A stretch of 63,438 nt of DNA from a virus (Duplodnaviria > Caudoviricetes): positions 1-63,438 of the IMG/VR virus record IMGVR_UViG_3300046170_000254, one strand, 5' to 3'. The notes below the pieces were generated by a model. It did not search any database. It was not told the origin of the DNA and saw only the letters and a list, made by a program, of their open reading frames with translations. Positions 7,923-61,366 of the stretch are shown piece after piece; position 1 is the stretch's first letter; each line of letters begins with the position of its first letter. The position numbers and the translations under genes are program-made.

Positions 7923-8551
7923 ACAGAAACATAGAGTACTTGCATCGTAGAAATATTATATATAGACGCGATCCTATAAACGATACTCCCACTGAAATAT
8001 TTAGTTGGGGTAAATTTTATGAGGAGGGTACCTATGAGTGTTATGAATTATTCAGAAGTAAAGCAAAAATAACAACTTATAAGTCTTTTAAATGGCACAT
8101 ATTAGTGCTTTGGCACTTAAACCCTAAGCTAGACGATAAACAATTTGAGGATTTAGTTTATTTTTTAGCTGATAAACAAAATGGATTTGTTACCTTTACA
8201 ATACCTGAGCATGTTATATACAATATTGCTTATGAAGTTTCAAAAGAAGATTTAGAAGAATCTCCTAAAAACAAAATAAGAAAAATAATATTTAAAGACA
8301 ATTGCGGATTAACAAGCACAGAGAAGTTAAAGATAGTAGGTACTTTAATGGGTAAAAAGAAAAAAGCTGAAGAGTCGGATATATATGAAGCAATGATAAT
8401 GCTACACGATAACTCTAAGAAAATCACAGTAAAAAGTTTATCTAAGATATTGAACGTATCTACGAGAACTATATACAGAAATATTACAAATGATTTAAAC
8501 AGAGAAAAAGCATTACTCAATGAAGAAATTCAACATTCCAAACTATGCTAG
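7916..8551 (+). CDS. C-terminal HTH DNA-binding protein, candidate replication initiator
   Basis: ITVKSLSKILNVSTRTIYRNI HTH; first gene of the replication module. Confidence 0.6.
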   Translation: MSHRNIEYLHRRNIIYRRDPINDTPTEIFSWGKFYEEGTYECYELFRSKAKITTYKSFKWHILVLWHLNPKLDDKQFEDLVYFLADKQNGFVTFTIPEHVIYNIAYEVSKEDLEESPKNKIRKIIFKDNCGLTSTEKLKIVGTLMGKKKKAEESDIYEAMIMLHDNSKKITVKSLSKILNVSTRTIYRNITNDLNREKALLNEEIQHSKLC

Positions 8552-9258
8552 GTTTAAAAATGATTTAAATGAAATTAATTTAGATTTATATAACGATAGA
8601 GATAAATTAATTGTAGAGAATATAAAATTAGTAGAGAACATAGCTAGATCATTTTCAACTATGCAGCAAGCATCGGGAGTATTAGATATAACAGATTTAA
8701 TACAAGAAGGTACAGTTGGTTTAATTGCAGCTGTAGATAAAATTGAATGGCAAACAATTAAGCTTTCAACCGATCCAGAAAGAACATTAAAATCTTTTTT
8801 AAGTAAAAGAATTAAAGGAGCAATAAGAAGAGCTATTGATATTAATAGAGGGAAATATTAGAATACCGGAGCATAAATTAAATGATATGCGTAAAAATTC
8901 TGAACAAGAAAAAAAGATGGTGGAAATATTTTTTAATAGTATTTTTCAAAGTATTGATAGCATCGAGCACCATACTAATATGAAGTATGATATTATTGAT
9001 CCAACAAAAGAATACAATATAGATATATTAAACAAATATTTATTAAGTATAATGGAAACGCATCTATCTATAAAAGAATATGATGTATTACGCATGAGTT
9101 ACGGTTTAGACTGTGATAAAATGCAGGCTAAAGAAATTGCAGAAAAATTAAAAATTGAGGGGACAGCTGCTTATGTTAGAATATCTCAAATAAAGCGCGA
9201 TGCTATTGACAAGCTAATAGAAAATGTTGACCCAGCTCAAGTGTCTGATTTACTGTAA
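8520..9258 (+). CDS. Sigma-70-family RNA polymerase sigma factor, split by an extra G near 8850
   Basis: Region 2: LIVENIKLVENIAR...DLIQEGTVGLIAAVDK; then NIRIPEH; region 4: LSIKEYDVLRMSYGL...AKEIAEKL...RISQIKRDAIDKL. Confidence 0.9.
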
Positions 9259-19172: not shown

Positions 19173-19317
19173 TGTCTTTAACTTTTTTTATAATACTTAT
19201 TGTTGTATATATTATTGCTAATGCTAAACTGCATGCCTGCAGAATTTCATTTGCATCTGACATACTAAGCCCGAAGGCAAATGCATTAGTAATTACTATT
19301 TTTAAATCTTGCATTTT
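19159..19317 (-). CDS. Holin-like small membrane protein
   Basis: MQDLKIVITNAFAFG..., two hydrophobic helices and a basic tail, next to the endolysin. Confidence 0.5.
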   Translation of the reverse strand, partial: KMQDLKIVITNAFAFGLSMSDANEILQACSLALAIIYTTISIIKKVKDNGKN

Positions 19318-19775
19318 TATATTATTATGTAGGTGGTTTTGCCGTTTATCCTTTGCGCTTTTAAGCATCTTTTTCTATTTTGATCTTCAGAAACATAGCT
19401 TACATGCACCCAGTTAGGATTTTTATCGGTACCAAATTCCCATATTAATTGATCAAAGCTAAGATTGTTTTTTATGTATTCAAACATCTCAGCGTTTGTT
19501 TTATGTCCATGCGTATCATCAATATCAATAGCTCTACCCTCACAGTGTTGTGATCTTGAACTTCCTCCAATCGCTTTGTTTAATTCAACACACCGATAAA
19601 AAGAATTAATTTTAATAGGCCCGCCGACCCACTCTCTTAAAGGTTCAAAAACATTGACAGCTATATTAACCATATTAGATTCTTCGTAGTCTCCTGGAGT
19701 ATTATCAATACCCTTCCTGGTTGCTGTATTAGATCTTGTTGCTTCTTTGTAAGATATATGATTAGATATTTTCAT
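19317..19775 (-). CDS. Endolysin, peptidase M15A family
   Basis: INSFYRC..LNKAIGGS.RSQHCEGRAID...WVHVSY. Confidence 0.9.
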   Translation of the reverse strand: MKISNHISYKEATRSNTATRKGIDNTPGDYEESNMVNIAVNVFEPLREWVGGPIKINSFYRCVELNKAIGGSSRSQHCEGRAIDIDDTHGHKTNAEMFEYIKNNLSFDQLIWEFGTDKNPNWVHVSYVSEDQNRKRCLKAQRINGKTTYIII

Positions 19776-19781
19776 TTAATT

Positions 19782-22700
19782 TTAATTTCTTTTAATTTTT
19801 GGTCTTTGTGGCCTGATACTTTTTGATTTTTTCTTTTTTCTTAATGGTGTTTTAGATTTTTTAGTTTGACTTTCAATCATACCTAAATCCCACTCAGTCC
19901 ATCCAAGCGACAATGCTATTGATTGCCAAAGTTCTGTTTCAGGTTGCATAGCTGTATAAACATTGTCAAGTTTCTGTACAACTCTATCAGCAGGTACATT
20001 TGTTCCGGCAGATATTACTTTTCCTGCAGCTAAGAGAGCTGGATTATCTAAACTAAATCCTTCAGTAAAAACTTTTTCTCTTGATTCTTTATATTTAAAT
20101 GTATTTCCTGCAGATATTAATTTTCTTAATTTAGAATTTATAGGAGGTGATATTGAGGTTGCTGCTATTGCAGCTTTTGTATAATCAGGTCTATCCTTTT
20201 TAGATTGATTGATTATTTCAAGTATAACGTTTTTAACTGTTGCTGCAGCTGCGCCATAAACTCCTGTTCCTCTTAATAAAGAATCTGCTGAACTATTAGC
20301 TATTCTATAATATTTTTCCTTAGCATCAACTTCTTCTTCATCATCAAATAATAATGCAAACAATGCAGATTGCAACGCGGAGAATATAATATTTTGTATT
20401 ACACCATAATAAGCAATCTTACTGATATTTGTTTTCCAATCGCCACGTCCATTAACTAAGTCAAGAGCAGCCTTCTTTTGTAATCTAGCGTATTGCATAG
20501 GCGTATTTGCAAAAGCAAGAACAACGCGCCCTAAACTACCTGCTTGTTCCATAGAAACTCTATCTGGTCTTGACGACTGCTGTGTTTCTTCTGCAATCTC
20601 TTGGAAATCAGTAAATGCCTCTTGCTCAGCTTCTTTTTGTTCTAAACCTTCTTTCTTATATTTTTTAATTCTATTACGATAAAATGTAGCACCCCCAGAA
20701 GCAATAGCAAATGAATCAGCAATTTGAGTAGGAGTAAAACCAATTTTTAATAAAGCATTGAATAATGCTCTAGGCGATGTTTCATTTCCTTTAGTAGCTT
20801 TAGCAATTTCATCCGCACTAATATCAGTTTGCAGCCCACTTCGTCTTTGCTTTAAAAAATCAGAATTAAATAGTTTTACAAAATCTTTTCTATACTGTCC
20901 AAAGTTTGCAAGAGCAGCTGCTGCGCTAATAGGGTTGTTATCTGAAAAGTTTATAAAGTTAACTGTAGATAATGTTTGGAGTACTGCGGATCTAGCGTTA
21001 AAGAACATGATACTTCCTACAGAATTGTTTACCCAATCCATCCAGGCTCTTTCCTGTTTACTCTGGCCCATTTTCCTATTAACACCTTTTTCCATTCTAT
21101 AAAGAATGTTTTCAAGTGCTTCAACATATTTTTCGCCGTATAAGCCTCGTAACTTTGTAATGTTTTTTTCAGAAAATATTATATCTTTATTTTCTTTCCA
21201 TTCAGATAAAAATTCAGATCGCTTTGCTCCATTGACATACCCAATTAAATCACTTGTTATATCACCATCTATCCAGTTAGCTTCTGGGGAGGGGTAACCT
21301 TCTGGGTTTAATCCCATTAATGTATCAGCAAAAGATTTAAATTTATCATTTTTCTTTATTGCTCTTATTGCATTGTTGACTTCCCCTTTATTAATACCAG
21401 GGTATATCAAAACCTTGTTTTTGCCACATATACATTCTAAGTGACTGTTCATTTGTAAAACCAGATTCATTTTCTTTTTTCAATCCACCAGGTACATCTT
21501 TTTTAGCTCGCTGTTTCAAAACAGACCACTCGCGCATAGCTCTTTGTTTTTCAGCTTCATAAGCTTGAATACCTCTTGAGAATGGTCGTAATAAATTTTC
21601 TCGATACCAATCCATTTGTTGGTTACCTTTTTCTTTACCAGCAAGCGTTGTGTATAGCAAACCTACAAAATCATCTGCTGAATAGGGAACAAAAATTGCC
21701 CCTTTACCCTTACCCTTAGCCATCACTCTAGCTTTAGCAGGTGAAAATCTTTCAGTCCATTTAACTCCAGTAGATTCTTCTAATATTTTATTAAACTCTT
21801 TGTTTAATGATTTAGAAAATTTTTGTACAAAAATTGAATTAATATTTTTTTCAATAAAAGCATTATTATTAGAATAACTTATATTAACTATTTTGTTTAA
21901 ATCAATATTAGAAGCAATATATCTATCTACCCATTTTTTCCAATTTTTGGGCATTACATGTGCATACCCCGCTTCATTAATTTTTTTAGAGTCAGCAACC
22001 GATATTGCTATTAAAACATAATCTTTTTTAGATTTTTTAAGATAATCTAAAAAGCCCTTTTTATTTTTATTTTTAGCAAAGCGTTTAGCAGCATTTAATA
22101 CTCTTTTCCATTGAATATGATTTTGAACAGCATGTTCATATTCAAAAGTTCTTGTTATTGGAATTTTAATTTCTTTTCCGTCTTTTGCATAAATGGTTTT
22201 AAATTTTTTATTTCCATCTTTATCTACAGCAAAAGTTTTTAAAGCTGTTGGATCATAACCTAAAAAAATAGCTCCTAATCTGTGCCAATGAGAAACGTCA
22301 TTACTAGAGGTTTGTAAAGTTGATTCAAGAAAATCAAACATATCAGGATTTTTCTCTAATATATTATAATACTTTTCCCACATGCTGTCATATACTCTTG
22401 AATATGTATTTTGTAATTTAAATATATTTCCGTTTTCTATATTATTTTTAATTTCAATAGCATTCCGACCAAATTTTTCAGCTGGATTACCAAACGACTC
22501 GCCAGGTTTTAATATATTAAAATTAGTTTTTGCTTTATAAGATATTATTGATTTTCTAAGATCTTTTATTTTTTCTCTTAATATTTGTTTTTCTTTTGGC
22601 TTTAACTTGTCAAATCCTTTAAGCTCATTTTCACTAACTACATAAGAAGGTCTTTGTGACCCTAGTTGAGTTTTAATATCACCAATTTCGTCTTGTAAAA

Positions 22701-25700
22701 TTTTTGAACCTTCTAATTTAGCGTTGCTCCATTCCGCCCACCCCTCAGGAGTTAGTAATTTTTTAGCAGTAACATTAAATTTTGAATTAGAATTTGAAAA
22801 TTTTATTTGTGGTGGATTTACCACTTCTTCAACTGGAAAAGCTTTGGGGTCATAAGCTATAAATATTGTTTCTGAACCATCTGGTATATCAGCTGGATAG
22901 TCATATGTTTCCCATCCTAATTCATTTGCAAACTTTTTATTTAAAGAATTATATAATCTTTTTCTACTTTCTTCTTTTGCGGTAAATGTTATAGAATTTA
23001 ATTTTTCTTTTTTAATTAAATCTATAGTTGCATTAGCTACAGTTCCAAATACTTTAAACTGATTAGTACGACCTTTTAACGCGTATTCTGTTAAACCCAC
23101 TCTTTTTGTGGTTGCAGATGCAAAAGATAATTCCCATGATTTTGGATCATTATTAATAGCTCCGTCCTCAATACCTTCAGTCTGCTCAAATATATCGTAG
23201 TTGTAACCTGAAGGATCTTTAAATGCATTTATTTCATAATCTATTTCACCTACTTTAAATTTATATAGCTTTGCGCTTTCTTCTAATGGGTTTAATTGGT
23301 TTTGTTCCCATTTACCATCAGCCTTAGTTGTGAGACTAAATTTAATATTAGCAGGGTCAGCCTCGTAAATTATATTATCAGATATTAATGAATATTTATC
23401 GCTTAATTTATCTAAGCTTGTTTTATTAAGTATTTTTGCTAATTCTTGAGATTCTAAATTGTATTCCGCTTTAGCATCGTTTATAATACTTTTAGAAAAT
23501 TTAAAGCCTTCCGCTCTATCAACTTGCTTAGCTATTAATGATTTAAAGTTTTCAGGTAATACTTCACCTGTAATACCAGCTATGTCTTGGTATTTTGAAA
23601 TAACATCAGGGTCATTTAAAACTTCCATAGTAGCATCAAAAGCAATTTCTTCTGCCATGCCCTCCACTACGGCCGTCTTTCTTGCTCCTTTAGTTGATGA
23701 ACCTACTTCGCTGCCTAAAAAGTATTTAATCCATTCTGCCTTGCTAATTTTCTTTTTAGTAAATACTTTATTACCTTCAGCTGTCCGTTCTCTAAGTTGT
23801 TTACCATTTTCATCTAATACAGGCTGCGCAAAATCAGAAAATCTTCTGTTAATAAGGCTCTGAGGCATTTTATTATAAATAGCTTCAAAATTATCACGTA
23901 AAAAATTTTCAAAATTAGCTCTAGTTCCTACAAACTTTGATAATGGTTTTTTAAGTTCTGTTCTAAATCTTTTTTGTAATTCAAACCTAAACTTAGGATC
24001 CTGAGGATTGGGTAGTTTTGTGCCAAAAGTTTTTACTACAGCATCTTTAACTTTGGTAACAAGGTCTTCAGATAAACCAATTTCTTTACGTAAACTTTTT
24101 ATTTCATCAGCTACCGCAACTTCTTTTTCTTCTATGATTTCTTCAGTAGTTACAGTATCAGTAACACCTTTAGCTTCTGTTACATCTAATTCAAAATCAG
24201 TTTTAAGAATGCGGTTAGCCGCTTCAATAGCTCTACGACTTAAAAATGTATTTATATAACCGGCTAATGGGGCACCTTTTGCTTTTTCAGGTGTGTATTC
24301 CATTATCATGTCTAGAATACCACGCTTACCAGTCTCTATTTCATCCTTAAGAAGCTCATATTCAAACCCAGGAACATCTCTATACTTATTTACTAGCTTG
24401 TCTACAATTGGCTTAAACTGGTCAATTATATCCATTGCACCAGCAGTTCCTTGTTCTTTGTATATACGTTGAACTTCATCAGATGCTTTTTGTGATCTTG
24501 AAAACTTTTCAACTTCTTTTTGTGAGGTTTTTGTAACATCAACAAGTTTGCCTTCAATACCTTTTCGAGCTTGTTCTAGTACTTTTTGCCTAATACCACC
24601 TTTAGAAATATCTTTGTTATAATCTTTTATGAAATTATATACGTCTCTACCGGTATCAAATTTTATTTTTTTAAATCCTAAATCTTGTAAAACTTTTCTT
24701 ATTGAATCTCCTATGCGCGTAAATATATTTTCATTATACTTAATATCTCCAGTAGCAGTTGCGTCAGAAAATAATGTTAAAATTTCTTCTGCTTGAACAC
24801 TTTCTGGATTCTTAGAATATAATTCAACTCTTCTTCTAAAATTTGAGTCTGCAATTTCATTTAAATTTAATTTAGAAATTTCTTCCCCTAAAGCTCTGCC
24901 TAAATTAATAGCTGTTTCTGGTTTTTCTTTTAGTGTTTTAAACAATAACCCATGCAGCAGCTCATGAGAAGCAACATTTACAGCGTCGGTATTTTTTGCT
25001 ATTTCTTTATTTATAAAAATTTGTTTTCCATCTCCAGAAATAAAACCATCAGACTCAACAGCTTCTTTTATTATATTTTCAGAAAAATTGTTTTTAATTA
25101 AGTACTCTTCTAAAGCTTTTTTAGTTTCAAAAGATTGAAAATCTATGCCTAATTGCTCGGCTTGTTTTTTAGAAATTTCAGCTGTTTTTTCAAATTGTTG
25201 TTCTTTAGCTAAAGAAATAATTTTATTATTTTCTTCGGTAAGTTTTTTAATTTCATCGTTAGCTAACTGAATAGCAGAATCCGGCCCTTTAATAGACTTT
25301 CTTTTATTTATAATATCAATATTTTTAGCATAATCCATTAACTGCTCTTTATTCATAGCGTTAATATTTAATGAATTTGCTTTTTTAATTTGTATTATTT
25401 TTTCAGTTTCTTTATTAATTTCTTCTCGAATAATATTAGCCGCCTCCCCGTCTGCTTTTTGTAAATCTAAACTTAAATTAGATATTTTTGCCCCTGCAGT
25501 CTTCATTTGATTTTGTTGAGCTTCAGGGGTAAGTAAAAATTCTGCTCTATTTCTAGCAGCAGTTGACGCTCCACCAATTTCAGCAATAGTGTTTATAGAG
25601 CCTCCCATTAAACCACCAATAATAGCTCCGTCCATTACTCTATAAAAAGCATCTTCTGGTATATCTTTACCTAAAGTTATAGCGTCAACTATCATATTAG

Positions 25701-26724
25701 CCCCCTCAGTTGCTCCTTCAGATAATGATTCTTTAAAAATGCCTAAACCAAACCTTTTTCCAGCCGCTCCTAAACCTTCTTTTAATATTTTAGCAGCTTC
25801 CTGAGTTGAACCCCTACCTATCAAACCTTTCGCTTTTCCAATTAAGCCCATGGTCGTTCTTTCAAATAAAGCTTCTGTAGCCCCCGTTCCTGCGGCGTTT
25901 AAAGCTAGTAATGCTAAAGACTCTTCTGGATTATTTTTAAATTCTTCATCAAATTTATTGCCAGCTACACTAGACCCAAAAACAGCTAAACCTCCTGCAC
26001 CTGTAAAAGCCATAGCTACTGAAGGTAACGATTGCAACGCGCCTCCTATAGCTAATTCCGCTGCTTCTGCATAATTATTATTTTCAATAGCTTTAGTAAC
26101 AGAAGTGTTTTCTGTTTTTCTAATGTGCTCATTTATATCTGATAATATGTTATCATATTGGCCGGTAGATAAATATGTTGAGCCCGGAACCCCTTGTGCT
26201 AAAGCAGATTTTAAACCTATTTTTTCTTCATTAGATAATGGATTTCCTAAAACATCCGCAACCCCCGCTGTTGTAGTTAATACAACATCTTCAGCAAATG
26301 CTTGTGTACCTCTTAAGAAATCAGTAATTCCATAAACAGTTTTAGCTGCTAAAGATTCTGCTATAGATGGATCTTTTTCTTCAATTTTTTTAACTTGTAA
26401 TAGTTCTTGTTTTATTTCACCTGTTTTTTGAAACTCTTCAAAAGCAGGGCGTTGAGCAATAGTAAACTCGCCTTGTTCAAAACTACTTTTTATTTTTTGT
26501 AAATCCGATGAAATATCTTCCGATAGTAATTCCGTAGCGGTTGGTTGTATTTCGGGTGTTACATTTTCCTCCACAGGCACACCCTGGTTTTCTTCCTTTG
26601 GAGGAGTTATCTTTCCCGGCTCTTCCGCACTTACTTCTATAGCATCAGGATTGTCTGTTAAAAATTGTTGTACAATATTATCTGGTATATCGTAAATAGT
26701 ATTATTCGATTCAAACTTAGGCAT
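19782..26724 (-). CDS. Giant (~2,310 aa) ejection/internal virion polyvalent protein with a zincin motif, a sigma-like module and others; one extra C near 21400
   Basis: ORFs 21391..26724 and 19782..21470 join as ...QGFDIPGINKGEV on deleting one base; HELLH at aa 587-591; last and largest gene of the podoviral ejection trio. Confidence 0.8.
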
Positions 26725-26728
26725 AAGA

Positions 26729-27994
26729 TTAGTTTGTTATAAATTGTGAATAAGGGTCTTCAGAAGGACCTTCGTATATTTTAGGATAAATTCTATTTGC
26801 TGTTGCTGCATCCACACCTTTAGCTAATAAAAGAGTTCTTCGAATATCGTCATCTGACATGTCTGAAGATATAATTAAATCATCACCTCCAGGAACAGCG
26901 CTTTTTATATATAAAGCATCACCACCTGCTAATTCGATTTCTTTATCTATTTTAGGTGAAATATTCAACGAACCTAATTCTTTTGAAAAAACTGTACTAT
27001 TAAAATCAACCATACCTTCTTTAGTTCTAGGTATTTTAATGTTTTTAATTAAGTTATTTGTTGAAAATATTTTTTGTTGTTTTAGAGCTTCTGGATCAGT
27101 TTTACTTGGCTTTGGTTTTCTAATTTCATTTAACTCTTTAGCGTAAAGCGAAAGGTCTCTTAAATATAAAGTATCTTCTACGTCTTTTCTAATTTTAGCC
27201 ATAGGAGTAATAGCGTAATAAGCTTCTTGTTCAGATCTTGTTTTATCTTTTAAGAAATAACCCAAAGCAGCGTTTTTTACATCTTCGTCTGAAATGCTAT
27301 TTACTGTTTTAGCTGCTACATCTCTAATTCTTTCATCTGTTAATGAACCAGAAGTTAATGATCTTTTCTTTAATCTTCCGAATGCAGCGTCCTCTAATTT
27401 AAGTAGTATGCTTTTATCAGCTGCTTCAACTGGTGAAATGCTAGCTAAATCAATTAATGTTTTCCCACCATCAGTACTTAAAAAATATTTGCCATCCTTT
27501 TCAACCCATTCTTTTTTAGTGTTTAAATCAATAGCTGCAATTAAAGCTGCTTTATTTTGAGGATTACCCCAAGGAGCCATCTCTATATTTTTAGCAACAT
27601 TTGTATAATCAGAGCCTAAACTCTTTTTCATTTTCATTAAGCTATTTAAACCTTTAACTTTATTTTGAAGTTTAGCTAATTGTATATTATACTCGGTAAC
27701 ACCAATTTCATCTTTTCTTTTAATTAAATCAAAAGCTTCGTCCTTAATTTTAAAAGCCTCTTTAGATGTAGAATCTAATACATCCTCACCTACCGTAGTT
27801 AAATCTATATTATCTACAGATAAAAAGTCTTTAGACCTAATTTCATTTTCTTTTTTTTCAAGTTCAAGTTGTTGCTGTCTAAGTACAACTGCATTACCGT
27901 AAGTTTCTTTAAATCTATCAGCAAAACCTTTTCCAAAGTCTGTAAATTTAGGGGCTACATCTCTAGCTCCCTGTACTAATATTCTATCTGCCAT
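26729..27994 (-). CDS. Putative ejection/internal virion protein
   Basis: Helical and charged; located between tail genes and the giant protein. Confidence 0.6.
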   Translation of the reverse strand: MADRILVQGARDVAPKFTDFGKGFADRFKETYGNAVVLRQQQLELEKKENEIRSKDFLSVDNIDLTTVGEDVLDSTSKEAFKIKDEAFDLIKRKDEIGVTEYNIQLAKLQNKVKGLNSLMKMKKSLGSDYTNVAKNIEMAPWGNPQNKAALIAAIDLNTKKEWVEKDGKYFLSTDGGKTLIDLASISPVEAADKSILLKLEDAAFGRLKKRSLTSGSLTDERIRDVAAKTVNSISDEDVKNAALGYFLKDKTRSEQEAYYAITPMAKIRKDVEDTLYLRDLSLYAKELNEIRKPKPSKTDPEALKQQKIFSTNNLIKNIKIPRTKEGMVDFNSTVFSKELGSLNISPKIDKEIELAGGDALYIKSAVPGGDDLIISSDMSDDDIRRTLLLAKGVDAATANRIYPKIYEGPSEDPYSQFITN

Positions 27995-27996
27995 GC

Positions 27997-28863
27997 TTAA
28001 GTAATTTTTGATTTAAATAAACCGCCAATACCACCCGGCATACCCACAGCTCCCAGGGCTGCTCCAGCCAAATCACCAATTCCTCCTACTAAAGATTGTG
28101 TAGCTTGTTGTCTAGCTAGATCTGCTGCAGCTTTTCTCTGTTGGTCCATTCCTAATATTGTTCCAGTTCTTTCAAACTCCCTAGTTTCAAGTCTTTCTGC
28201 GCCCCCAGCTTCCATTAATTGGTTACTAGCAGTTTGTTTTGCTATAAGTTGTTGTATGCCTGCTTCTTGTCTCGCAATATCTCCTGATATTCTTTGAGTT
28301 TGTATTGCTTGAGCCTGTGACAACGATTGGGCTAATGCGGCCGCCCCAGCACCTCCTCCAGCACTTCTAAGTGCGTCTAAAGTTTGGGCTAACCCTTGTT
28401 GTTGTTGCTGTGCTTGAAACTCTGCTGCTTCTGTTGAAACTCTTAAATCTTCAAATGGATTTTCTAAATCAGTATAAGCATTCTGAAATTCAAAGTCTTT
28501 ATAGGAAGCTAAAGATTGGTTATAAGCGTCTTGAGCGGCTCTTTGCTCTTTTCTTCTAGCCCTACCCCCTACAATACCACTTATTATCCCGCCAATTCCG
28601 CTCACTGCTCCACCAATAACATTTGCTTTTTCAAAAGCGCTAGCGGTTGGAGAAACATCAAGGTTGCCTGAGATTGCGCCTGCTCCTGAAACGTCTAAGC
28701 TATCAGCTGCTAATTTTTTTTGGAGCCCTCCTCTTACACTAAGTGGATCTGGGACACTACTAGTCACTGGGCTAATACTAGACATTGCAAGCCCTGCGAT
28801 AGGTCTTCTTTTATCTATTCCAGAAACAGTTACGTTTTCTAATTTAATTTCTTCTTCATCCAT
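27997..28863 (-). CDS. Putative ejection (pilot) protein
   Basis: Gly/Ala-rich hydrophobic ends around a Gln/Ala-rich coiled coil. Confidence 0.7.
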   Translation of the reverse strand: MDEEEIKLENVTVSGIDKRRPIAGLAMSSISPVTSSVPDPLSVRGGLQKKLAADSLDVSGAGAISGNLDVSPTASAFEKANVIGGAVSGIGGIISGIVGGRARRKEQRAAQDAYNQSLASYKDFEFQNAYTDLENPFEDLRVSTEAAEFQAQQQQQGLAQTLDALRSAGGGAGAAALAQSLSQAQAIQTQRISGDIARQEAGIQQLIAKQTASNQLMEAGGAERLETREFERTGTILGMDQQRKAAADLARQQATQSLVGGIGDLAGAALGAVGMPGGIGGLFKSKIT

Positions 28864-30254: not shown

Positions 30255-30875
30255 TTAATCTAAAAAACCCCATATACCAGTGTGATGATGTTTTGTAAAA
30301 CAAATATCTTTTGAACTATTAAACAAATCATTAGGTAGTTTTTTTACCTTTTTATTATTGTTTATTATAAAATCAGATAGAGCAATTGGGCCTACGGTTT
30401 TTCTTACTATAGTACCTGGTATTTTTTCTTTAATATTAGGATACATTGCTACGTTTTCTAAATTTTTAAATATAGATTCTCTGCAGTGATATAAAAACTC
30501 AGTCCAAAAATTTGATTGAGACGAGATCATTAAACTATTTTGAAACACTTCGTCTTCCGCATATGCTTCAATTATATATATGTTATTATTATTTATTTGG
30601 TGCATGAAAGGAGATATTAATTCTATGTCAATATCTATATATGCACCACCTATTTTTTCAAGAATCAAACCTCTAACGTAATCTAGTCTAAATATCTTAT
30701 GAGATTGATTTAATACTTTAAAAAAGTTAGGATCGTATTTTTTTATAAAATCATCTATTTCGTTATCATTCCAAACTTTTATATCGCTATAATGTTTTTG
30801 CCAAGAAGCTAAACAAGTATGCCACATATCTGGCCAAATGTTTTTGTTTTTAGGTGCTAGAAAGTGTAAAGTCAT
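30255..30875 (-). CDS. DXD-motif glycosyltransferase (GT32/OCH1-like)
   Basis: SWQK....IKVWND, DYVR..IL...GGAYIDID, N.LM.S, TVGP, HHHTGIW. Confidence 0.85.
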   Translation of the reverse strand: MTLHFLAPKNKNIWPDMWHTCLASWQKHYSDIKVWNDNEIDDFIKKYDPNFFKVLNQSHKIFRLDYVRGLILEKIGGAYIDIDIELISPFMHQINNNNIYIIEAYAEDEVFQNSLMISSQSNFWTEFLYHCRESIFKNLENVAMYPNIKEKIPGTIVRKTVGPIALSDFIINNNKKVKKLPNDLFNSSKDICFTKHHHTGIWGFLD

Positions 30876-32000
30876 CGAACTTATAATGAACAAATAAATT
30901 TCTGAAGTAATTACCCTCAAAATTTTCTTTACGCCCATGCTCGCACACAGGCTCCTTCGTAAAGTATCATATCACCTGGTTGTGCATAAATTTTATGCCA
31001 TTCTCCATTGTGATCTTTAATATCTAAAGGCCAATCATTTTTGCCATTTAAATCTTTATCTACAATTATTATAGAAGATATATGATGGGTTTCAATTCTA
31101 TCTACATGCGGAACTAATGTTGCTCCATTTTGATAAGACCTAATCCCATATATATAAGAAGGCGTAAGTTTTTTTCCAGCAAATTCTTCGTGGGTTTTTA
31201 ATAGTTCATTGTGAATAAAACTTCTTATATTAGAAACGTAATCAAAATTTAATAATTCAGTTCCTCCGTTTTTAATAAAATCTTTTTTACCTTCAAAAAC
31301 TTCTTCTGTATTCTTATCTTTAATTAACTTATAAGAATCTTGAATTATTCCCCATATAGTTTTAGGTAAAGGAATTACTTTAAAACCTTTTTCTGTAAGT
31401 TTAGGTAAGCCAGAATCAGTAAAATTACTAGGTTCAGTTTTATTTGTTGACCAAGCATTTTCTCTCCACCAAGATGTTATTATATACTTTTTACCTGATT
31501 TAACTTCACACCCTTCATGCATTGCATCAGGTATTATGTTTTTGTTTTCATCTATGTTTTTCCAAAAAATCGCCTTACCTGTTTCTGGTATTACGGACTT
31601 ATCAATATTTGTAAACCTTGTTTCACCACCCTCAAAATTATCATTTAAATAAATCATTAAAGTGTATACCTCGGTTCCCGGCTGCTCCAGCATGCGCTTC
31701 ATAAGAATTACCAGAAAAAGCGTCCTGGTGCGGCTTAAAATACTCACCTGGTTCATACATTTGCCCTTGTAAAGATTCCCCGTTTTCTATAGGAAAACCT
31801 AAATAATTTGCTATTTTTTGGTGTACACTTCTAACAGTACTATCTATTGTTCCTAAATTAGAGGTAGAGGACGTTCTACTATCTTCATAAATAGACTTGC
31901 CCTCTGCTCCAATTACTTGTGATTTAAAATTATTATTATTAATTAGATTTATAATATAATCACATTCTTCTTTTTTTAAAAAATTTTTAATTTCATTCAT
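30850..32000 (-). CDS. Tandem 2OG-Fe(II) oxygenase with an N-terminal prolyl 4-hydroxylase-like domain; two insertions (~31680, ~30950)
   Basis: Domain 1: RTSS, ESLQ...Y.PGEYF.PHQD, MIYLND..EGGET.F, H.GC.V..G.K. Domain 2: L.PHVDR, PGDMILYE, HGR. Confidence 0.88.
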
Positions 32001-59569: not shown

Positions 59570-59820
59570 TCAACAATTATAACATCCTGTTGTTTAATTA
59601 CTGTGTAACTTTTACCCTCAAAAACTAGATCGTGCCCAGCGTGCCTATCGTAGTATATAATATCTTCAGGGTTTATGCACTCGGTTTTTTCACCGCAGTT
59701 AACAACTTTTCCTTTTAAATACCGGTTTTCGCTTTTATTATCTTGCATGATAAAACCATAATCGGTTTTAATCTCTTCTTTGATCTTAGTTATGATTATA
59801 TAATTATTTACTGCTTTCAT
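59566..59820 (-). CDS. groES: Co-chaperonin GroES
   Basis: MKAVNNYIII...GKVVNCG...D.I.Y......Y.VIK..DVI; adjacent to groEL. Confidence 0.85.
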   Translation of the reverse strand: MKAVNNYIIITKIKEEIKTDYGFIMQDNKSENRYLKGKVVNCGEKTECINPEDIIYYDRHAGHDLVFEGKSYTVIKQQDVIIVE

Positions 59821-61366
59821 TTAACCTAACATTTGAAATTATACAATCAGCTGAAATTATAGTTAATGCAACAGAAACCGCATTAATAAGGGCTGTTTTA
59901 GTGACCAGTACAGGATCTATGATCCCTTCTTTTACAAGATTACACATATCCCCGGTAATAACATTTATACCCTGCCCTTTATCAATATACGGTCCGTATT
60001 TAATTCCAGCGTTTTCCAGTATTTTTTTATAAGGTGCTCTTATAGCTCTATATAGTATATTTTCTGTAGATTTTCCTTCGGCAAGTTCATCAGCTGCATT
60101 ATGTAATGCAACGCCTGCCCCTGGCACAATGCCTTCTTTTAAGGCAGCTTTAACAGCGTGTATTGCGTCCTCTACTCTATCTTTTTTCTCTTTAAGCTCT
60201 ACTTTACTATTTGCACCTACTTTTATAACACCAACAGCCCCTGATAACATAGCGAGCCTTTGTTCTAGCTTTGTTTTTAGAAAACCGTTCTTTTCGTTTT
60301 TAATTTTATTCCTTACAGTAGTTATTCTTTCTTTTACCTCTTCAGGCATAGAGTCTACTGTAATTATAGTGCTATTTTGATTTGTTACAGCTTTTGTTGC
60401 AAAACCTAAACAACTAGGATCAATTAAATCTAAATCATCTCCTAATTCTTCATTTATGACAGTAGCTCCTGTTATTGTAGCTAAGTCTTCAAGCGTATCC
60501 TGTTTTGTAGCGCCAAACCCAGGTAAATCAACAATATTTACTTTGATATTACCTTTTACCTTGTTCATTACTAAAGCAGACATAGGCTGTTGCTCTAATT
60601 CAGCTACAATAAGTAAACTTTGTTGACTTTTAATAACATGCTCTAATACATTTTGTATTTTACGCACATTAGGTACTGGACTAGATAAAATAAGTATTGC
60701 TGCATTTTCTAATTCAGCTTTATTCTTTTCTTTATCGGTTACTAAGTGTTGTGATTTTAAACCTGAATCAAATTCAACACCATCAATAATTTCAACGTGT
60801 GTTTCATCTGTATCTGATTCTTCCATCAGCACTATGCCATCTTTACCTACTTTTTTATATGCTTGTGCTATAATACTACCTAATTCAGCATCATTGTTAA
60901 CTGATATCGTAGCTACCGACTCTAGCATTTTATTTGTTACTTTGGTTTTAGAGCTATTTAGGTTTTTTAACACTTTTTCTTTAGCTTTTTCAACACCACT
61001 CTTAATATCTCTAACATTTGCGTTTTCAACCGCTAAACATTCTTTAAGAATAGCATGAGCAAGTACAGTAGAGGTTGTTGTTCCGTCACCTGCTTCTTTA
61101 ACTGTTTTCTGTGCAGCTTCTTTTATAAGAGTTGCCCCGATGTTTTCTACAGGATCAAAAAGTACAACACTATTTGCTACCGTAACACCATCTTTAGTTA
61201 CAACAGGTTTTCCCATTGCATCCTCATATATAACGCATTTTCCGGATGCCCCTAACGTTGAACTTACTGCTTCGGAAAGTTTTTCAATTCCGTTTACAAT
61301 TTTAGACTTAGCGTCGCTGCCAAAGTCAAGATTCTTTACAATCTCACTTGGATTATTATATTCCAT
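59804..61366 (-). CDS. groEL: Chaperonin GroEL (group I)
   Basis: VTKDGVTVA, AGDGTTT, IKVGA, RVEDA, EGIVPGAG, GIIDP..VTK.AL.NA.SVA. Confidence 0.97.
   Translation of the reverse strand: MEYNNPSEIVKNLDFGSDAKSKIVNGIEKLSEAVSSTLGASGKCVIYEDAMGKPVVTKDGVTVANSVVLFDPVENIGATLIKEAAQKTVKEAGDGTTTSTVLAHAILKECLAVENANVRDIKSGVEKAKEKVLKNLNSSKTKVTNKMLESVATISVNNDAELGSIIAQAYKKVGKDGIVLMEESDTDETHVEIIDGVEFDSGLKSQHLVTDKEKNKAELENAAILILSSPVPNVRKIQNVLEHVIKSQQSLLIVAELEQQPMSALVMNKVKGNIKVNIVDLPGFGATKQDTLEDLATITGATVINEELGDDLDLIDPSCLGFATKAVTNQNSTIITVDSMPEEVKERITTVRNKIKNEKNGFLKTKLEQRLAMLSGAVGVIKVGANSKVELKEKKDRVEDAIHAVKAALKEGIVPGAGVALHNAADELAEGKSTENILYRAIRAPYKKILENAGIKYGPYIDKGQGINVITGDMCNLVKEGIIDPVLVTKTALINAVSVALTIISADCIISNVRLNESSK

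Follow-up and report, generated by a model that had tools for sequence, protein, structure and literature searches.

Podophages of the T7-like and P22-like kinds possess large ejection (internal virion) proteins, such as T7 gp14, gp15 and gp16. T4 Alt and IPI-III and the inner-body proteins of phiKZ and SPN3US are packed in the head, ejected, and cut by a prohead protease at short consensus sites; prohead proteases cut several head proteins. A further described system is that of the polyvalent proteins of phages and conjugative elements. Iyer, Burroughs, Anand, de Souza and Aravind proposed in 2017 that zincins embedded in these proteins process them into functional units, and likened this to the polyproteins of RNA viruses (PMC5512222). 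In the available part of that paper's text no cleavage site is defined, the term 'cleavage site' occurs once, in the title of a reference, and the word 'sigma' is absent; a full-text search found no cleavage site defined in later papers, and no system nearer to the present one. Here we describe a giant gene that may provide such sites, at 19782..26724 on the minus strand of a phage genome, IMG/VR record IMGVR_UViG_3300046170_000254, analysed over its 63,438 bases (the window).

A reading of the DNA letters and their open reading frames (ORFs) by themselves, hereafter the sequence-only reading, had proposed that this gene encodes an injected polyprotein that cuts itself at KFS motifs to free putative host-takeover effectors, recalling, as the 2017 paper indeed states, that zincins of polyvalent proteins were proposed to release domains (PMC5512222, available part). 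To that proposal our analysis adds the exchange of modules at the motif, its placement in predicted linkers, its conservation and an invariant HExxH..E signature. The giant protein would most likely be packed in the phage head and leave it with the DNA, in the manner of polyvalent proteins and of the large ejection proteins of T7-like phages; cleavage at the motifs by its own zincin would afterwards divide it into separate polypeptides. We infer the cleavage, the cutter, the packaging, the injection and the roles of the modules from sequence, and we give self-cleavage at the motifs by the protein's own zincin a probability of about 0.45. It is supported by the single gene, the border motifs in linkers, conservation at the protein level, lineage-specific variants and the absence of the motif where the zincin is absent. 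Packaging and delivery with the DNA are suggested by one observation, the position of the gene in the virion module.

With polyvalent proteins, the giant protein shares its large size and multidomain make-up (about 2313 residues and at least six modules, as judged from AlphaFold models and from cutting at the motif), the exchange of unrelated domains between relatives, and an embedded HExxH zincin-like domain. It differs from them in giving no match to MPTase-PolyVal, LPD38 or LPD39, in carrying a defined, conserved hexapeptide at each module border, and in its fixed N- and C-terminal frame; it is polyvalent-like in its working, yet fails the family-specific Pfam tests. Like the T7/P22-type ejection proteins, it has hydrophobic segments and comes after the tail genes, in a module of podophage type whose portal has a P22-like relative; three genes stand in a row there (288, 421 and about 2313 residues), and its own is both the last and the largest. 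Unlike them, it is far larger and has a zincin-like domain and a variable cassette. In T4, phiKZ and SPN3US the cargo consists of individual proteins, and the serine protease that cuts them is a protein of its own and acts on other head proteins as well; in the present phage a single protein, with a metalloprotease-like domain of its own, holds all the candidate sites. Finally, an embedded protease or protease-like domain and a short conserved site that marks each domain border, lies in a flexible linker and differs between lineages are features also of eukaryotic RNA-virus polyproteins, from which the giant protein differs in coming from a DNA phage, in having a zincin-type rather than a chymotrypsin- or papain-like domain, and in being a putative virion cargo rather than a replication polyprotein.

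One giant gene and its zincin-like domain

The ORF list of the window gives the gene as two overlapping frames, P0001 (1777 residues, 21391..26724) and P0002 (562 residues, 19782..21470), both on the minus strand, as are all parts of the gene given below; residue numbers are those of P0001 unless P0002 is named. Homologues cross the junction between them, aligning with residues 1 to 1775 of P0001 and then running straight on at about residue 24 of P0002. Among the best 150 of the 2380 clusters that match P0002, alignments begin at residues 15-41 of that frame, mostly at 21-26, and the 801 proteins matched by P0001 are mostly 2000-2500 residues long. The break lies at 21397..21400, where a short C run carries one surplus base (coding strand 'ata ccc tgg'). 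The stretch is present in twenty seawater runs, and in contigs of all four public runs compared (X1, X2, X5 and X12) one base is absent at 21398, 21399 or 21400. Because the homologue alignments are unbroken and all four runs are one base shorter, the gene encodes a single protein of about 2313 residues, and its division into two frames in the window reflects either an error of assembly or a rare variant. The C-terminal ORF that the sequence-only reading had kept apart therefore belongs to the same gene as P0001. One of the four, X12, is an RNA run, which we dropped as a sign of transcription, since contigs covering the stretch do not show transcription.

Two AlphaFold models were used, A for residues 445-1140 and B for residues 1060-1777, with a mean predicted local distance difference test score (pLDDT) of 70.8 and 74.2, respectively. 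Both are multi-domain and have a low predicted template modelling score (0.36 and 0.49), which weakens fold searches. From the secondary structure that DSSP assigns in model A and from invariant residues, residues 526-704 (24613..25149) are predicted to form a gluzincin-like HExxH..E domain of an unclassified type. The predicted order of elements, which fits a zincin fold, is three strands, a helix (584-599) with HELLH at residues 587-591 (24952..24966), and a helix (645-658) carrying E647 (24784..24786), a candidate third zinc ligand 56 residues past H591. Across 40 aligned sequences H587, E588, H591, Y636 and E647 never vary, the zincin Glu and His residues are invariant in 18 diverse family members too, and HExxH was found in 117 of 120 relatives. 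The sequence-only reading had called HELLH and a downstream AEE a gluzincin-like arrangement; HELLH is present in the sequence, the AEE is residues 645-647, and the invariance of H587, E588, H591 and E647 bears the signature out. The Pfam matches of this domain, to DUF3267 (E 0.028) and Peptidase_M78 (E 0.037), lie below the cut-off. A PDB sequence search with P0001 returned no match, and a profile search with the alignment gave only E values of about 0.02-5.

The KFS motif and module borders

Downstream of the zincin-like domain, KFS occurs five times in P0001. The first copy, EKFSRS (KFS at residue 740, 24499..24507), lies at the border between the zincin-like domain and a module that we call M1. 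FKFSKS (residue 1075, 23494..23502) and IKFSLT (residue 1128, 23335..23343) enclose a 53-residue spacer module; module M2 follows up to IKFSNS (residue 1308, 22795..22803), and module M3 up to QKFSKS (residue 1635, 21814..21822), which borders the C-terminal domain. These are the five copies counted by the sequence-only reading, and neither residues 1-739 nor the 562-residue ORF contains another. Against these five copies stand 0.6 expected, and 0.04% of 5000 shuffles reach five or more, in a test made once the motif had been chosen. With every tripeptide admitted, one at least as surprising turns up in 339 of 2000 shuffled versions of P0001, so that five KFS in one sequence are not beyond chance under multiple testing, and the recurrence noted in the window by itself carries no weight. 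It might then be an accident, or a by-product of a Lys/Phe/Ser-rich, AT-rich composition. Against this stand the family data: among 120 relatives KFS was seen 263 times, compared with 79 expected, and a looser pattern of the motif 312 times, compared with 44 in one shuffle. Together with conservation site by site and the coincidence of the motif with alignment ends and low-pLDDT linkers, set out below, this excess has already refuted the chance explanation, which we regard as highly improbable; judged from these sequences, the recurrence is real in the family despite the weak single-sequence case.

The family consensus is h-K-F-S-[KL]-[ST]. Conservation across relatives, which the sequence-only reading had proposed to examine, is good at sites 1075 (K in 76, F in 77 and S in 79 of 88 sequences), 1128 (conserved in 32-33 of 34), 1308 (K[FY]S in 26 of 29) and 1635, and lowest at site 740 (K in 64, F in 34 and S in 80 of 117). 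The serine codons differ among the five motifs (TCA, TCT and AGT), and it is therefore the peptide, rather than the DNA, that is under selection. For the same reason a recombination signal at the DNA level, considered as another origin of the motif, is ruled out.

The motif coincides with the points at which relatives cease to be alike. In an all-against-all BLAST of 120 proteins, 30% of internal alignment ends fall at +1 to +5 from the motif K, compared with 0.6% at random, and 15% of internal alignment starts fall at -5 to 0, compared with 0.7% at random; the sequences are related, so the ends are not independent events. Precisely at residue 1635, 46 homologue alignments to P0001 begin. When 110 proteins were cut at the motif and the pieces clustered at a mutual coverage of at least 70%, the families running from motif to motif had fixed lengths (334, 53, 180, 333, 305, 295, 484, 337, 372 and 299 residues) and combined into 46 architectures among the 110 proteins. 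The 53-residue spacer has five different right-hand neighbours in these architectures, and M2 has six; these counts, too, are drawn from kindred proteins and do not represent independent events. From these comparisons, the motif marks module borders, and the protein consists of a fixed frame (N-terminal region, zincin-like domain, sigma-region-2-like module and large C-terminal domain) plus a cassette of interchangeable modules, with the hexapeptide h-K-F-S-[KLN]-[ST] at every border. The exchange of variable domains at the motif, which the sequence-only reading had raised as a check, is thus seen in both the alignment ends and the module clusters.

The predicted structure points the same way. 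Segments with a pLDDT below 50 comprise residues 705-734, 741-744, 846-875, 1073-1079, 1210-1218, 1299-1311, 1634-1640 and 1672-1696, about 9-11% of the modelled residues, and four of the five motifs fall within them (binomial P 7e-4): the first at 705-734 and 741-744, the second at 1073-1079, the fourth at 1299-1311 and the last at 1634-1640. The remaining motif, at residue 1128, lies in coil, and its blocks average a pLDDT of 53 and 66 in model B. In the models, then, the motifs sit in flexible linkers between predicted domains, as a comparison with AlphaFold domain boundaries had been expected to reveal if the sequence-only reading was right, and no KFS is buried inside a fold.

Lineage variants, the zincin and rival explanations

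The first letter of the motif changes in concert within single proteins. All five sites of the relative P0013 read QFS, all three of P0047 read RFS, and all three of P0179 read DFS. P0013 groups with K-type relatives on a tree of the C-terminal domain, and other whole clades are Q-type. Purely non-K proteins with at least three sites number six, compared with 0.14 expected, and none of 5000 shuffles reaches that number, kinship being uncontrolled in this comparison. A clade with two HExxH motifs (P0141-P0213) has the border motif h[LKM]ASK[PVTS]L (LASKPL) in place of KFSKS, with the first copy about 150 residues past HExxH, the same distance as in P0001. The second HExxH of this clade, for instance HEKQH, is placed near the end of the protein, some 60 residues before its C-terminus.

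Loss of the zincin is accompanied by loss of the motif. Among 226 long family members, nine lack HExxH; these have another type of N-terminal region and zero or one loose motif each. None of the six inspected has the motif at a junction, and in P0085, which is 99% identical to P0001 from residue 1638 onwards, KNKKSL stands where P0001 has KFSKSL. On the sequences compared, zincin and motif go together, as a correlation.

These observations bear on a first alternative, in which the protein is never cut and the motif is a structural connector or docking peptide that starts each exchanged cassette; the zincin would then act on host proteins or cell-wall peptides, or be needed for packaging. A precedent is the N4 virion RNA polymerase, which has such a zincin and is packaged uncut, the region being needed for encapsidation (PMC5512222, available part). 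The C-terminal domain takes up the SKSL..FN part of the last motif as a continuation of its own conserved sequence, zincin-less relatives stay fused multi-module proteins, and the type of motif is tracked by no zincin residue, all of which would suit a joint. A pure joint, however, leaves unexplained the concerted change of the first letter at three to five sites of one protein, and the motif is lost along with the zincin even beside a C-terminal domain that is 99% identical. Moreover, the motifs lie in low-confidence linkers and not in strands of the modules, and pairs of motifs 8-12 residues apart make poor module starts. We consider an uncut protein rather unlikely.

A second alternative accepts the motifs as cleavage sites and assigns the cutting not to the HELLH domain but to a protease of the host, or to one of the phage that has escaped recognition. 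The correlative nature of the link between motif and zincin, the failure to find covariation in specificity, and the many ORFs of the window that have no known family would all allow this. Candidate cutters are nevertheless scarce: no S78, S77, ClpP or S49 protease family was found in the genome, which is 99% complete, in a loose first look that could miss a divergent protease, and none of the ten neighbouring ORFs has a Pfam protease. We rejected a prohead protease as the cutter, as none of these four families was found in that loose look. Among the other ORFs of the window that match head or tail families KFS occurs once only, in the terminase, unlike the sites of prohead proteases. The relatives without a zincin are also without the motif. 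A foreign cutter seems improbable to us.

Self-cleavage by the giant protein's own zincin has to be weighed against several further points, all of which count against it. The zincin itself is called from the motif, the invariant residues and the order of secondary structure. MPTase-PolyVal (PF18818) has no match in the genome, and none in an hmmscan of residues 445-739 at E<=10. Foldseek searches of both multi-domain, low-pTM models against PDB gave nothing at E<=1e-3, the zincin-containing model included; for the zincin only selecase (4qhi_B, probability 0.16) was listed, and a multi-domain model may hide a domain match. The motif type is not followed convincingly by any column of the zincin alignment, and none separates K- from Q-type proteins; P0013, with QFS, looks K-type in its zincin. 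Mixed proteins, with K, R, Q or D at their sites, make up 27 of 72, and 56 of 217 HExxH-bearing relatives lack the motif by the pattern used. Since the relatives without a zincin remain long fused proteins, release of the modules is not obligatory. Stand-alone homologues of M3, searched for at 179-573 residues, were not found. The N4 polymerase and the kinship behind the counts of alignment ends and of concerted variants belong here as well.

On balance, self-cleavage by the zincin at the motifs is the explanation we favour, with the probability stated at the outset. A fuller version of it we put forward only tentatively: in a family of giant virion proteins known only from metagenomes (at least 2380 clusters at 50% identity), each protein would be processed by the zincin that it carries, at hexapeptides that differ by lineage (KFSKS, QFSKS or LASKPL). 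This would free a sigma-like factor and shuffled effectors in the newly infected cell, with protease and sites co-evolving as in the polyproteins of RNA viruses.

Modules and genomic setting

M1 (residues 740-1074, 23503..24507) is helical and highly conserved, and falls in module cluster 2, with 29 members. Two weak lines of evidence liken its first part to sigma-70 region 2: in a profile search against PDB, sigma-K (E 0.89) and FliA (E about 2) aligned over region 2, and 26 of 30 ESM Atlas matches are Sigma70_r2 clusters at 0.92. M1 has no match to PF04542 and no Pfam match at E<=10, and aligning the family alignment with the phage's own sigma gene by hhalign gave nothing usable. That gene, at 8520-8861 on the plus strand (113 residues), has a Sigma70_r2 (PF04542) match at 8607-8837 above the Pfam cut-off, with 25.5 bits; the phage would thus carry a free sigma-like gene besides the sigma-like module.

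The 53-residue spacer between the second and third motifs (residues 1075-1127, 23344..23502) belongs to cluster 4, whose 22 members are 51-53 residues long. M2 (residues 1128-1307, 22804..23343) is an alpha/beta module related to DUF6934 and belongs to cluster 5, with 19 members; its match to the Pfam DUF6934 family (E 1e-4, 22.8 bits) is under the cut-off of 27. The sole PHROGs match of P0001, phrog_16075, covers residues 1193-1275. In BFVD, the matches of model B at E<=1e-3 are to phage proteins of 147 residues (TMt 0.66) and to domains found in Zeta-toxin and deaminase proteins; it matches more weakly, at E 3e-3 and above, Alt-like ADP-ribosyltransferases, a likeness to T4 Alt. From the aligned lengths, these BFVD matches probably belong to M2. 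Matches to GNAT proteins (3d3s_B, probability 0.9, E 0.4; Foldseek against PDB) provide a lead for M2 only. M3 (residues 1308-1634, 21823..22803) is well folded in the model, with block pLDDT values mostly of 85-96; it belongs to cluster 7, with eight members, and has only a weak TcaA_2nd match in Pfam. Neither M2 nor M3 gave a significant family in Pfam or PDB fold searches.

The C-terminal domain, of about 680 residues (19782..21822), defines the family and contains one strongly hydrophobic helix (P0002 residues 355-376). Clustered at 50% identity, its matches to P0002 number 2380 at E<=1e-3 and 1504 at E<=1e-30; on these searches, the domain defines a very large family known from metagenomes only. 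It has no Pfam family. LPD38 and LPD39 are the nearest named ESM Atlas clusters, at 0.94 and 0.93, and serve as leads only: the hidden Markov models of both gave no match, the LPD38 search being a weak one whose control rang in no genome. Among 18 diverse family members, Zeta_toxin/AAA_33 occurs in two, and DUF5763 and DUF6934 in one each. In many relatives (for example P0066, P0107 and P0274) the module just before the C-terminal domain has the consensus DFDDTL ... TARP ... FADD. That module looks like a HAD-type phosphatase, and with the Zeta_toxin/AAA_33 kinase it recalls a polynucleotide kinase-phosphatase; Pfam showed no HAD match at E<=1e-3. P0152 (785 residues) begins with MASKIL..., right at the border motif before the C-terminal domain. 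The gene may be naturally split at the motif, or else its start is an artefact of gene calling where a contig is broken; most short C-domain proteins look like fragments.

At the other end of the protein, the N-terminal region (residues 1-525, 25150..26724) was described by a hydropathy scan and, for residues 445-525, by the model. It has a Gly/Ala-rich hydrophobic stretch at residues 232-254, long helices in the modelled part, and a weak Pfam match to DUF7541 only.

The window is a phage genome, 99% complete by CheckV. Upstream of the giant gene is a minus-strand virion block with terminase, portal, capsid-like, several 'virion structural' and tail-fibre families, and the next gene after the giant gene encodes an endolysin (19317..19775). 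The nearest terminase, 63% identical, is that of an uncultured podophage, followed by those of Flavobacterium, Cellulophaga, Tenacibaculum and Maribacter phages. By its terminase, the phage is a marine podophage whose closest cultured relatives infect Flavobacteriia. A tblastn search with P0001 and P0002 against 50,697 phage records gave zero matches, so no cultured relative of the giant protein was found. Directly upstream of the giant gene, at 26729-28863 on the minus strand, are ORFs of 421 and 288 residues that have no Pfam or PHROG family; by their position, they may be smaller ejection proteins. A DXD glycosyltransferase and a 2OG-Fe(II) oxygenase-like ORF are found in the virion module (30255-31756, minus strand), and a GroEL-like chaperonin near the window end (59804-61366, minus strand).

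The podophage with the 63% identical terminase, MW202828.1, has at the syntenic place a gene for a 3859-residue protein (P0132, 741-12320, minus strand). Annotated as 'reticulocyte binding/rhoptry protein', this protein contains HExxH twice, along with a hydrophobic stretch rich in Gly and Ala and an FSETP..QQWL segment repeated twice. We rejected it as a homologue, as BLASTP showed nothing significant between it and either P0001 or P0002, and regard it as a positional analogue only.

For the zincin-processing proposal of 2017, the giant protein supplies a concrete, mutable candidate site at every module border, together with a putative catalytic Glu, and the family contains natural controls in relatives without zincin and motif and in lineages with other variants of the motif. 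Even if the protein remains uncut, the family clearly exemplifies the exchange of cassettes at a peptide joint that stays fixed. Should the motif be a cleavage site, module borders, cargo repertoires and cleavage maps could be read from sequence across thousands of uncultured marine phages, and an injected sigma-like module would, if true, be a new way of starting early transcription.

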